Below, in pieces: positions 16,043-21,602 of a DNA stretch of 64,000 bases (within the stretch, counting starts at the first letter, position 1; every line of letters starts with the position of its first letter). The stretch is from Candidatus Latescibacterota bacterium. GTDB taxonomy: Bacteria > Latescibacterota > UBA2968 > SICM01. Under the pieces are notes generated by a model that saw only the letters and a list, made by a program, of their open reading frames with translations, ran no database searches and was not told where the DNA came from. The DNA lies in the NCBI GenBank assembly GCA_965217865.1, contig CBDCJO010000002.1:5088001-5152000 (forward strand), read 5' to 3'. Position numbers and translations under genes: made by a program.

Positions 16043-16148
16043 CACCGTACGCATCTTACCGCGACGCCTACCTCTATCACCGGCTCCCTTCCAGTTCTCC
16101 TGGTCTCCAATCAGCATTCCCAGTATTCCCCTTCAATCCATCCCTTAG

Positions 16149-17674
16149 CAGCCCGTTGAAGAACTACCTTTCAACGCACATAAACGGAAAAGACGCCTGG
16201 AGTGCGGGTCAGATAAATCAAGGTAAGGAGATTGAGCAGGAGACGCTGATAAGAGGTTAAAAAGGTGACCGAGGGCAGCAAACGTGATTGTAGGACGAGC
16301 AGTAGACGCTGCAAGGCCTTGGCCAGGTCCTGGAGGGCCTTCGGAGTACCTACGCCCATCACTTTGCGCATGAGCAGAGCCAGGTTGCAGCCCCCGATGT
16401 GGATCAGCAAACGCTTGAGGATATTGCCGCGGTCTCTCAAGTGCAACCTGCGCATGCCACCGGTATCATATGTGTGAGCGATGGTTCTTTCCACCCGTTC
16501 TGCACGACTTCGGCGCAAGACCTTGCCGCGATCTCCCTTGATCCGGCGTCGATTCGCATATACCGCGGCCTGCTCATCTCGTCGGCCGTTCCACTTGCGG
16601 CGTCCCCGATCCGGTTCTGAAATGTAACTCCGGATGCCGCCTTGCTTCAGACTGGTCAATACATCGTTGCTATGATATCCTTTGTCCGCAACCACCTCCC
16701 GTATACGCTGTCTGTGCAAACGTTTGGCAGCTTTTTCGTCCTTCGCGACCTGCTTGAGATTGAGCTGCGCCTCGAGCAGCGTCCAGGGCAACGACTCGGT
16801 ATCTCCTTCATCTGCTCCCGACAACGCCACTGCCACAATGGCATTGGTGTCCAGATCCACCGCGTGCTCCACCTTGTGCGCCATGTGCGTGCGACCGTCC
16901 TTCATCTTAGCGATCTTGGCATCCGGGTCGTGCGGGTGCTCCCAGTCCTGGTTCGATCCCTTCTTCGGTCGCTTCTTATCGATCTTGGACAAGTCCTCGC
17001 GGGTAGGCGTTTCAATGCCCGAGGCCTTGGCCAGATTCTCAAGGAATGCCTGGTAGCCTTCACCCGTGTCACGGCGTACAATGCTGCGCATCGCGGCGTT
17101 GGCCTCCAGTGTCGTAGCATCCACGCCCAACGTCTTCCCCTTCACCAGACCCGCTTTGCACAAGACCCTCAGGATCCACTTGAAAACCGCTTCGTGAACT
17201 TCCAAGGGAAGCCGATGCCGGATGCGAGACAGGCTGGAATGATCCGGGGTCTGTTCGTCAAGGGCATACCCCAAAAACCGGCGCAACGTCAGCGAGTCAG
17301 ATACACGCCATTCGATCCCACGTTCCGAATCAAGTCCCTCGAAATACCCAATCAAAAGCATCCGAAAATAAACCCCGGGCGGAATGCCCTTGCGACCCAT
17401 ATGAGGAGCGTAATACCGCTGGCAAAGCCCCTCGACGAACTCGTCGAAGCCGTTCGCCCCCAATACCTGATTCAGCTTCTCGTAGAACGGATGACCCGGA
17501 AATTTCACCAAAGTGTTCGATGCGATGAACAGGTTTTCCTGTCTCTGTCGTCCTCGTTTTCCCATTGCCATTTGCTCGTCCTCCCTTCTCAGTTTGAACC
17601 TGATATATCATAGGACCAAACCACAAGGAAAGACAATAGTCATCTTGGCATAAACGCACTTTTTCAACAGGCTG
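16149..17674 (-). mobile_element. IS5/IS1182-like insertion sequence, copy 1
   Basis: Terminal IRs CAGCCCGTTGAAGAA / TTTTTCAACAGGCTG; flanking TTAG duplication; near-identical copy at 56409-57934. Confidence 0.95.
16171..17571 (-). CDS. DDE transposase (DUF772-type N-terminus)
   Basis: GRKGIPP, SERGIE, PDHSSLSR, VDATTLEANA, VADKGY, R..VER motifs. Confidence 0.93.
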   Translation of the reverse strand: MAMGKRGRQRQENLFIASNTLVKFPGHPFYEKLNQVLGANGFDEFVEGLCQRYYAPHMGRKGIPPGVYFRMLLIGYFEGLDSERGIEWRVSDSLTLRRFLGYALDEQTPDHSSLSRIRHRLPLEVHEAVFKWILRVLCKAGLVKGKTLGVDATTLEANAAMRSIVRRDTGEGYQAFLENLAKASGIETPTREDLSKIDKKRPKKGSNQDWEHPHDPDAKIAKMKDGRTHMAHKVEHAVDLDTNAIVAVALSGADEGDTESLPWTLLEAQLNLKQVAKDEKAAKRLHRQRIREVVADKGYHSNDVLTSLKQGGIRSYISEPDRGRRKWNGRRDEQAAVYANRRRIKGDRGKVLRRSRAERVERTIAHTYDTGGMRRLHLRDRGNILKRLLIHIGGCNLALLMRKVMGVGTPKALQDLAKALQRLLLVLQSRLLPSVTFLTSYQRLLLNLLTLIYLTRTPGVFSVYVR

Positions 17675-17764: not shown

Positions 17765-18011
17765 TTTGATAACTTCACACATTCAAAAAAGGATCCACCT
17801 GTGGAAGACGATAAGATTCCAAACTTTCTCCTGCCTTTAAGCCCGGAGGAAAAGAAGAAAGCGAAAGAATACGCAATTAGAACTCAAGGGCTTGACTTTT
17901 GGTCCCTTGTTGGTTATATTTCCCCCACTTTGAGCGGCGAAACGCCTGACTGGCCAAGCCGGACTAGGGTTTCGTTAGTCTGATTGGCCACGCTAAAGGG
18001 AGGACTGCACA

Positions 18012-19151
18012 ATGGATTTTATCGACGAAGTTCGGACGCGCTCATCTCGTTTCGCACAGCGGACTGAGCATTTTAACGATCAGGAATCCACCGAGGAATC
18101 AACCAAAACCTCGCTCGTTTTACCGTTCATTCAGATGCTTGGCTACGACATATTCAATCCTGCTGAAGTTCTTCCCGAATTCACGGCGGATATTGGAACC
18201 AAGAAAGGCGAGAAAGTGGATTTTGCACTAATGCAGGACGGCCACCCCATAATACTTATCGAGTGCAAGAAACTGGGAACAACGCTCTCTAGCGATACTG
18301 TGTCCCAGCTGCTTCGGTATTTTGGCGTTACGGAATCGCATGTCGGCATATTGACGGACGGTATCTTTTACCGGTTCTTTTCCGATCTTGATCAGTCAAA
18401 TGTCATGGACCCTCGCCCGTTTTTTGAATTCAATATGCTCGACTTCACCGAGATCCAGGTGAAGGAATTAAAAAGATTTACCAAAGACGAGTTTGACAAA
18501 TCGTCGATCATCGGCGCGGCAAGAGAATTAAGATACACCGCCGAGATCAAAGGTCTGCTGGCACGGGAATTAATGAAACCTTCGGACGACTTTGTGAGAT
18601 ATGTCATCCGTCAGGTTTATGAAGGAAGGGTTTCGGTGGCATCCCGTAATATGTTTAAGGAGCTTACTTTTTCTGCCTTTAACCAATTCATAAGCGACAA
18701 AATACAGGACCGTCTGGCAAGTGCGCTAAAACAGGAAGGCGACGCAGCACAGGAGCAGCGGCCCGACAAAATTTCAGAAAAAGAAACTCCCGAGTTTGCA
18801 CCGGCCGAACTTGCCGCGCTAAACACCGTAAAAGCTATCTTGGGCGGCATTGTGAATGCTAGCCATCTCGGTTTAAGGCAAGCCAAGCGCTACTGTTCGG
18901 TTGTGCTGCATCGCAGTCCCGAAAAGAAAGATTACGGGACCGTCCTATTCCATTTGTATGCGAGGCGCCCTGAGTCTGTAAAGGTGAAGGGGCCGGGAGT
19001 CACACCTATCGCACTCGATACGATTGAAGACCTTTTTGCACACACAGACCACTTACGCAAGTTCGTCCAGGAAAACGAAGCGATCGCTGCGCCAGCCTCG
19101 GATCATGCAACACCGCCCGTTGAAATCATTACGCAAAGCACCCCATCATGA
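18012..19151 (+). CDS. HsdR N-terminal-like / PD-(D/E)xK restriction-endonuclease-family protein (COG4748-like)
   Basis: TEESTKTSLVLPFIQMLGYDIFNP, EFTADIG..KGEKVDFA, IECK, QLLRYF, ILTDG; GGGAGG RBS. Confidence 0.85.
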   Translation: MDFIDEVRTRSSRFAQRTEHFNDQESTEESTKTSLVLPFIQMLGYDIFNPAEVLPEFTADIGTKKGEKVDFALMQDGHPIILIECKKLGTTLSSDTVSQLLRYFGVTESHVGILTDGIFYRFFSDLDQSNVMDPRPFFEFNMLDFTEIQVKELKRFTKDEFDKSSIIGAARELRYTAEIKGLLARELMKPSDDFVRYVIRQVYEGRVSVASRNMFKELTFSAFNQFISDKIQDRLASALKQEGDAAQEQRPDKISEKETPEFAPAELAALNTVKAILGGIVNASHLGLRQAKRYCSVVLHRSPEKKDYGTVLFHLYARRPESVKVKGPGVTPIALDTIEDLFAHTDHLRKFVQENEAIAAPASDHATPPVEIITQSTPS

Positions 19152-20013
19152 ACGTATCAAATGTCCGCTTGTTCTTGCGGTTATTGTATTTGTAGCAGGC
19201 TTCAGCCACGTAGAACGGCGTGTATCGCTTCGTATAGTGATGATGGGAACCGTACCAGGCACGCTTGAGTAAAGACCACACGCCTTCAATCGTGTTGGTA
19301 TGTATATCACCGTCCGCGTAATGCCTGGCGTGGTGGATCACCGCGTGATCCATGATTTGCCTTACGGCGTTGTAGGCCCCGAATTCGTCCGTGACAAGCA
19401 TCGACTCCGAAGGGTCTATCGCCTGCTTGATGAAGGCCAGAACTCCCCTGCCCGACAGATCGTCCGCCACGCGGGCAACTACCTTCCCGCCGCGTTCCAC
19501 GGCTCCTATAACCGGAGTCTTGCTGGTTCCGCGTCCCCTGGGAGCGTTGCCGCCGCCATCCGACCGTCTGTTGCGTTTCCTGGGCTTGCCTCCGACGTAG
19601 GTCTCATCGGCTTCGACGATCCCTCGCAACAATACCTTCCCCTGCCTTGTTGCCATCTCGGCACGAATCCGCTGTTGCATGTACCATGCAGACCGTTGCG
19701 TAAGGTTCAGGTCCCGGGCAAGCTGGCAACTGGACAGGCTTTTCTTGGCGTTCACGATCAAGGCGATCGCCATAAACCACTTCTGAAGCGGAAGGTGCGT
19801 TTTCTGAAATATTGTCCCGGAAAGGACGTTGAAGCTGGACTTGCAGGCATGGCAGTTCCAACGCCCGACGCGGTTTCCCTCTTTCTTCTGGGCGCACTCC
19901 CCAACCGCCCCACACAGCGGACAAAACGGATCACTTCCGAACCGCACCCGCTCCAGATGCTCAATGCACGATTCCTGCGTCGGGAACTTTTCAATCGCCG
20001 TCAACAAGTTCAT
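19129..20013 (-). CDS. IS1595 family (ISXO2-like) transposase
   Basis: Zn ribbon CPLC..CHAC, VEADETYVGG, TDEFGAY, HTNTIEGVWSLLKR, Y..E..Y.YN.R. Confidence 0.95.
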   Translation of the reverse strand: MNLLTAIEKFPTQESCIEHLERVRFGSDPFCPLCGAVGECAQKKEGNRVGRWNCHACKSSFNVLSGTIFQKTHLPLQKWFMAIALIVNAKKSLSSCQLARDLNLTQRSAWYMQQRIRAEMATRQGKVLLRGIVEADETYVGGKPRKRNRRSDGGGNAPRGRGTSKTPVIGAVERGGKVVARVADDLSGRGVLAFIKQAIDPSESMLVTDEFGAYNAVRQIMDHAVIHHARHYADGDIHTNTIEGVWSLLKRAWYGSHHHYTKRYTPFYVAEACYKYNNRKNKRTFDTFMMGCFA

Positions 20014-20192
20014 TTTCCTTTCTCCCTTTTTTTGGTTAAGTTGGTTGTTTTCACTACACTTAATATAACCAAAAAAGGGTTGAAAGTCAAGCCCTTAAAT
20101 TCTAATTGCGTTCTTTTTTATCCTGCCGATACCCGCCGCCGGTCCGACCCTTTGGCGTTGCCATCCCCGATTCGTTTTTTATATTCGCATCC

Positions 20193-21176: not shown

Positions 21177-21602
21177 ATGGATAAGCCCCTCAAGGAACTC
21201 GAAAAGGTCGCCATCTTCTTCCTTGCGATCGGCCCCGAAAGAGCCGAGGTTCTTCTTAAACGGCTGGGGACCGATGCCATGATGCAGATCGCAGCGACGA
21301 TGAAGCGGCTTAGCCCTGTCTCCTCGAGTGAGAAACAGGCTGTTTTACGTGAGATGCTGGATATTATGGTGGGCGGACAGGGGGGGCACCCACCTGGAAA
21401 TCAAAGGGATTTCCCGGAGCCGGGGGAGACAAAATCAATCGATCCAGAAGACCAGCTCTTGGGAAGGGTGTCCGACCTCTTCCAAAAGGATGTCGATGTG
21501 AGGAATCTGAACTGGGAAGAAGCCGGGTATGATTTCAGCTCTTCTTCGCCTGAGTCCTCCGAGGACGATGATGAAGATCTTTCCTCGCAAGATCGCAGAT
21601 GA
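21177..21602 (+). CDS. Stand-alone FliG N-terminal-like domain protein
   Basis: LEKVAIFFLAIGPERAEVLLKRL...V...EKQAVLRE resembles the FliG N-domain; acidic tail. Confidence 0.6.
   Translation: MDKPLKELEKVAIFFLAIGPERAEVLLKRLGTDAMMQIAATMKRLSPVSSSEKQAVLREMLDIMVGGQGGHPPGNQRDFPEPGETKSIDPEDQLLGRVSDLFQKDVDVRNLNWEEAGYDFSSSSPESSEDDDEDLSSQDRR

Follow-up and report, generated by a model that had tools for sequence, protein, structure and literature searches.

An IS1595-family transposon with a stand-alone HsdR_N-type nuclease as its passenger in a Latescibacterota genome

The window analyzed here is a stretch of 64,000 nucleotides from Candidatus Latescibacterota bacterium (assembly GCA_965217865.1, contig CBDCJO010000002.1, positions 5,088,001 to 5,152,000 of the forward strand). 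It contains a passenger-carrying element of the IS1595 family of insertion sequences (ISs), in which terminal inverted repeats (IRs) enclose a transposase gene and a gene for a stand-alone nuclease. The features at the locus, in window positions, are the following.

17872-20110: passenger-carrying element of the IS1595 family, 2239 bp, with no target duplication at its own site
17872-17920, + strand: cargo-side terminal IR; an inward sigma70-like TTGACT-17-TATATT at 17892-17920, a putative promoter, points to the nuclease gene
17921-18011, + strand: 91-nt leader, predicted on weak evidence to fold into a branched hairpin in which the ribosome-binding site is partly paired
18012-19151, + strand: stand-alone nuclease of 379 amino acids, phrog_4225/COG4748-type family
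18012-18506, + strand: HsdR_N-type PD-(D/E)xK nuclease domain, residues 1-165, with E29, D70, E84-x-K86 and QxxxY (Q99, Y103)
18522-18725, + strand: helical middle domain, residues 171-238, predicted homodimer interface
18783-19085, + strand: C-terminal alpha/beta domain, residues 258-358, putative DNA-recognition module
19129-20013, - strand: IS1595-family (ISXO2-like) DDE transposase with zinc ribbon, 294 amino acids, intact
20062-20110, - strand: transposase-side terminal IR, with an inward sigma70-like match at 20090-20062
17801-17871, + strand: first 23-24 codons of a native gene interrupted by the element, directly to its left and outside it

The ends of the element were set at 17872 and 20110 by alignment with 27 IR-pattern matches from a genome-wide search for the end motif, each end lying two bases further out than the 17874 and 20108 proposed in an earlier reading of this DNA (the sequence-only reading). 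That reading was right that IRs enclose the genes and wrong on their length, which is 49 bp and not 47 bp; 41 of the 49 positions are identical, as are 26 of 28 at the outer end, and 10 shuffled versions of the 5-kb region gave best 49-nt inverted matches of 29-33. Each IR has one inward TTGACT-17-TATATT match, each facing one gene. As had been described, the open reading frames (ORFs) are convergent and their 3' ends overlap (by 23 bp), the transposase is ISXO2-like (matches to PF12762, to PF12760, with the N-terminal zinc ribbon present, and to NF033547 at 184.5 bits against a cut-off of 75), and neither a methyltransferase nor a specificity subunit lies within the element. Contigs in sequencing runs X2 and X6 begin exactly at 17872, which could reflect either several flanks or merely a common IR word, and no joint bypassing the element was found among the contig rows listed. 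In the sponge metatranscriptome run X14, contigs cover 18471-18640 and 18975-19256; because DNA carry-over is possible, we do not claim nuclease expression from them.

IS1595 elements with passengers, 25-bp repeats and 8-bp target duplications are described in the accessible text of PMC5704250, which also cites the IS1595 transporter ISs (tIS) MTnSag1 and tISCpe8 (Siguier, Gagnevin and Chandler 2009, as cited in PMC5704250). The element at our locus resembles these in its ISXO2-like DDE transposase, its core IRs of ~25 bp, the passenger between its ends and the 8-bp duplications of its sister copies. It differs from them in that the passenger is a lone nuclease and not a resistance gene, that the passenger gene converges on that of the transposase and is apparently transcribed from the IR farther from the transposase, and that the copy has lost its own duplication.

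The sequence-only reading would have been refuted had IR pairs elsewhere never enclosed cargo. They do: the same IRs surround cargo in sister copies of this genome, and an independent complete element (L015, below) has the same nuclease as its only cargo. Twelve copies of the transposase are present, with 91-100% amino-acid identity, and identical elements are found at different genomic sites. Six of the nine two-ended sisters carry a PF01555 (N4/N6) methyltransferase gene on the opposite strand, behind the far repeat; the other three hold a deleted remnant. Because the nucleotide identity of 85-91% between element types breaks off at the transposase stop codon and the sisters carry different cargo, the cargo slot is exchangeable, and it is mostly filled with restriction-modification genes.

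Several of the other IS1595 copies have features of their own. The sisters at C2:651746-654387, 1809778-1812419, 4039344-4042258 and 5530183-5533097 have leaderless N4/N6 methyltransferase genes, whose start codon follows almost directly after a -10-like box of the IR and whose products have, by eye, a C-terminal HNH-like motif. The left and right halves of one element lie at C2:3359123 and 3584753, separated by ~225 kb, and each matches a part of the complete copy E5 (3670489-3674882) exactly; both break at a nested IS1182-like element, and their flanks suggest recombination between copies or mis-assembly. A 10-kb element with a target duplication (C2:4583550-4593523) contains several nested ISs and two methyltransferases, one of which (541 amino acids) has what we take to be a nuclease-like C-terminus. 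Two copies resemble miniature inverted-repeat transposable elements: a palindromic IR-only remnant of ~47 bp (C1:432502-432548) and an element reduced to 397 bp by internal deletion, which has a target duplication (C2:4210820-4211216). A more distant IS1595 copy, from C2:3473579 onward, is followed by an ORF of 155 amino acids that presumably resembles a Panacea/SocA-type antitoxin.

The element in the window lacks the 8-bp duplication, its flanks being AAAGAATA and TTCTTTTT; among the nine other two-ended copies, the duplication is perfect in seven, has one mismatch in one and is absent from one. In two genomes of the same family, the corresponding region contains a gene for a 246-amino-acid protein followed by a thiamine-transporter gene, and tblastn found no trace of the rest of the former gene, or of the transporter, elsewhere in the focal genome. 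The simplest explanation of the missing duplication is probably an adjacent deletion that followed insertion and removed most of the target gene, and on account of this flank loss we class the focal copy as rearranged and not as a clean insertion. The interrupted gene encodes a conserved protein without a Pfam family, and the transporter gene that follows it in the relatives is of ThiT type (L193:4093-4830, L195:3778-4515).

The nuclease matches PF04313 (E 9e-13) and PF13588 (E 2.5e-8), both within its N-terminal 130 residues, and contains the motif KVD..IECK with E29, D70, E84, K86, Q99 and Y103 intact, confirming its earlier assignment as an HsdR_N/PD-(D/E)xK protein. In 147 of 149 aligned sequences, D60, D70, E84, K86, Q99 and Y103 are all conserved; the remaining two have gaps. 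The C-terminal ~120 amino acids had been called unrecognized: the last ~100 indeed match no Pfam family, but the protein has a family, phrog_4225, which it matches at full length (residues 8-353 against positions 5-352 of 357 in the profile, E 2.7e-93). In the predicted structure, the C-terminal domain follows a predicted flexible linker and bears a weak likeness to the YdhG/YjbR/DUF419/MotA-CTD fold; in relatives, it is replaced or extended by DUF4357 or SeqA-like domains. Sequence searches of the PDB with the whole protein and with a C-terminal profile gave nothing useful, and Foldseek found no PDB match at E 0.001 with either model; against BFVD it returned one uncharacterized HsdR_N phage protein, and the ESM Atlas returned hypothetical clusters only. 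McrB-N does not appear among the first 50 VIA rows for this C-terminal domain, a result that speaks neither for nor against kinship.

A rare, undescribed module had been expected. Instead, the family is very large, annotated in databases and mostly found outside IS elements, and IS1595 passengers are themselves known: 6001 of 8000 scored candidates were homologues at E 1e-10 or better, under the names 'type I restriction endonuclease' (RefSeq) or 'predicted type IV restriction endonuclease'. Its link to COG4748 rests on PMC3424549 and recall rather than on a COG search; COG4748 is grouped there with HSDR_N and given a predicted Type IV role (accessible part of PMC3424549), and the accessible part of PMC8649781 lists it among restriction endonucleases carried as Tn7 cargo. 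The focal nuclease shares with this family the three-part architecture and the catalytic motifs; it differs in its divergent C-terminal domain, and its clade sits on IS1595 elements rather than in prophages or chromosomal islets. PADLOC-DB 2.0 contained no full-length system match, only partial weak hits, the best at E 8.7e-7 among 112 members. Mycobacteriophage Panchino gp28 is reportedly a single-gene restriction system; no Panchino record was among the 19 phage records matched at E 1e-5, a comparison that did not include the gp28 sequence directly. In the DefensePredictor supplement, a truncated family member is a predicted novel defence gene; the tested set, in the accessible part of that source, does not name the family; in its Table S6, only two tested units bear the name 'restriction endonuclease', and one of these, RED1, which was not protective, may be a relative (PMC13092281). 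A phage-resistant Campylobacter strain has a unique HsdR-N gene whose size, 347 codons, would make it a candidate member (PMC8713573). The literature covered, with subscription journals mostly outside it, contained no experimental study of the family and nowhere described it as cargo of IS1595 elements. Element and nuclease are both of known kinds.

That the nuclease stands alone is borne out by the context of its homologues. Of 80 genome loci taken, 78 were analyzable, 56 of them with 3 kb or more of sequence to both sides; scanning these 56 for motifs turned up a methyltransferase in one, five genes from the homologue, and in none within two genes (the scan overlooked a frameshifted one ~3.8 kb from the L015 nuclease, inside a second IS). 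The 135 nearest neighbours included neither a DNA methyltransferase nor a conserved partner. Viral stretches encoding a relative numbered 478; after dereplication there were 56 loci, 54 of them with neighbours, and two of the 56 had a methyltransferase-like gene nearby. The upstream gene encoded a repressor or ImmA-type protease in 31/52 and the downstream gene an integrase or recombinase in 21/47, and annotated phages agree. Relatives are nearly always methylase free and typically lie in prophage lysogeny modules; genes at this repressor-integrase position are expressed in lysogens, and defence genes are often found there. An Escherichia coli homologue (WP_000061477.1, 36.8% identical) occurs in 190 of 5426 complete genomes; there it lies beside aldB with a divergent hicAB pair (as in NZ_CP062824.1, L182:3909-6075), and a Porphyromonas phage homologue likewise comes after hicAB.

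These contexts bear on whether the nuclease is (i) part of a conventional restriction-modification system or (ii) an orphan sequence-specific restriction enzyme that relies on host methyltransferases encoded elsewhere, for instance on the sister IS1595 copies. We rejected Type I restriction-modification, as the protein has 379 amino acids and no motor, with neither hsdM nor hsdS in the element or its neighbours, and Type IIG/IIC, as no methyltransferase is fused to or beside the nuclease; in contrast to Type I HsdR and Type IIG/IIL enzymes (Vibrio HsdR 3h1t, DrdV, BpuSI), it lacks a helicase motor, a methyltransferase and a specificity subunit. The orphan enzyme is consistent with a nuclease domain closest to those same Type I HsdR and Type IIG/IIL enzymes and with the host's 19 PF01555 matches above the cut-off (21 in all), several of them on sister elements. 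We nevertheless consider it very unlikely: the gene travels by itself, unaccompanied by a methylase, through phages and unrelated phyla, where such an enzyme would kill any host that lacked protection, and the helicase and HsdS-binding parts of HsdR are missing.

In the loci sampled, few family members lie near IS1595 elements. Homologues lay near an IS1595 transposase in 3/80 genome loci, 0/80 metagenome loci (many of them short) and 0/80 viral loci; relatives more than 67% identical with readable context adjoin an IS1595 transposase in all three cases. One of these, L015, is an independent complete element of 2.4 kb whose only cargo is again this nuclease. It interrupts a subtilase gene, is flanked by a perfect 8-bp duplication and encodes a transposase with 32% identity to that of the focal element. 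In L196, perfect repeats of 24 bp enclose the same convergent pair, the nuclease gene is frameshifted and there is no duplication, and in L200 the nuclease gene stands in tandem behind that of the transposase, with one recognizable end. These three and the focal nuclease fall in one clade of 20 rows in a quick tree (Shimodaira-Hasegawa-like approximate likelihood-ratio test, 94), the other 16 rows being without known context. Because IS1595-borne relatives with differing transposases share one clade, the cargo has passed from one transposase subtype to another and has crossed between at least two phyla. L038 and L019, which have IS1595 transposases nearby, were rejected as cargo cases, no IR pair having been found and the L038 nuclease being apparently cut by insertion. 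The L018 and L038 nucleases are cut at nearly the same C-terminal point and run into unrelated sequence, as if by insertions.

The nuclease could also be a neutral or selfish passenger, that is, a captured gene without current benefit or an aid to addiction or recombination for the element. Its single copy in the focal genome, the frameshift in L196 and its patchy presence (a full-length homologue in 9/168 genomes of the phylum) would fit. Against this stand the invariant catalytic residues noted above, the want of a conserved antitoxin partner, and an IS association that recurs with three different transposase subtypes, and we judge such a passenger unlikely. Of the roles suggested in the sequence-only reading, anti-phage activity is the likeliest and addiction is unlikely, because no antitoxin or methylase partner is conserved.

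A nuclease that moves alone without a methylase must ignore host DNA, and would therefore respond either to (i) a foreign mark, as Type IV enzymes do, or (ii) a trigger, as in abortive infection. Under the latter, the enzyme would remain inactive until its C-terminal domain was bound by a phage product or DNA structure, and would then degrade host and phage nucleic acid, killing the cell. A single methylase-free gene in prophage lysogeny modules and the flexible linker ahead of the C-terminal domain are compatible with such a trigger, as is possible translational damping by leader hairpins in all three promoter-proximal IS-borne copies. The leaders of the focal element, L015 and L196 had folding z-scores between -2.3 and -2.6 (focal -2.6), and pairing of the Shine-Dalgarno sequence was 0.83, 0.5 and 1.0, respectively, with ~15% of 220 control genes exceeding 0.8; in the wider family it was 0.55 versus 0.56 in controls, and an Rfam search of the leader returned nothing real. 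The leader signal is weak, so that damping is a weak hint, and relatives carry DUF4357 in place of the C-terminal domain, or SeqA-like domains in addition to it, both domain types being linked to DNA recognition. We regard abortive infection as somewhat unlikely. The same swaps make the proposed C-terminal sensor plausible, as a DNA reader more than as a sensor of phage proteins, and for this reason we place a Type IV-like role above abortive infection.

We give about an even chance to the interpretation that the nuclease is a methylase-free, probably modification-dependent (Type IV-like) anti-phage restriction enzyme, carried as cargo of an IS1595 transporter element. Transposase and nuclease genes would each be transcribed from an inward promoter in the adjoining IR; the nuclease would dimerize via residues 171-238, pairing two nuclease domains for a double-strand cut; and the flexibly linked C-terminal domain would recognize a DNA mark or sequence that the host genome lacks. 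Carried by the element, the gene would reach new sites and unrelated bacteria, and the element would be retained because it protects the host. With Type IV enzymes (McrBC, GmrSD, reader-nuclease fusions) the protein shares the lack of a cognate methylase, an exchangeable C-terminal module and fold neighbours common to McrB-N; unlike them, it has an HsdR_N-type nuclease with QxxxY and no GTPase or ATPase partner, and its modification dependence is a prediction. Three observations count against this Type IV-like interpretation: the fold evidence for the C-terminal domain is weak, conserved C-terminal residues are lost in the IS1595-borne clade, and neighbourhoods in cellular genomes are of housekeeping character. 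Tentatively, and with more doubt, the whole family may be a large uncatalogued single-gene defence system, in which a dimeric HsdR_N nuclease is joined to an exchangeable double-wing reader of a DNA modification without a known reader; one clade would have been captured by several IS1595 subtypes and shuttled between phyla in the methylase slot, yielding minimal transposons that trade marks and a mark-attacking enzyme.

Two further features lie close to the element. About 200 bp to its left is an IS1182/IS5-like element (16145-17674; 466-amino-acid transposase with DUF772 and DDE_Tnp_1), which has more than 80 near-identical copies in the genome and is bypassed by contigs in runs X5 and X6. 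The other, at 21177-21602, encodes a FliG N-terminal domain as a stand-alone protein; it is flanked by a glutaredoxin-Yip1 fusion and rarA/mgsA and is conserved in two genomes of the same family.

Members of the nuclease family number in the thousands across bacteria, archaea and prophages, and the RefSeq name 'type I restriction endonuclease' mislabels them. The transposon side alone is ordinary, and the value of the finding lies more in the nuclease family and in the ease of a test, as a single-gene enzyme whose recognition domain can be exchanged lends itself to simple experiments and E. coli has a homologue. The IS1595-borne clade shows a 2.2-kb route for such a gene across phyla. If modification dependent, the nuclease would add a family to the Type IV enzymes and possibly provide a new reader of modified bases.
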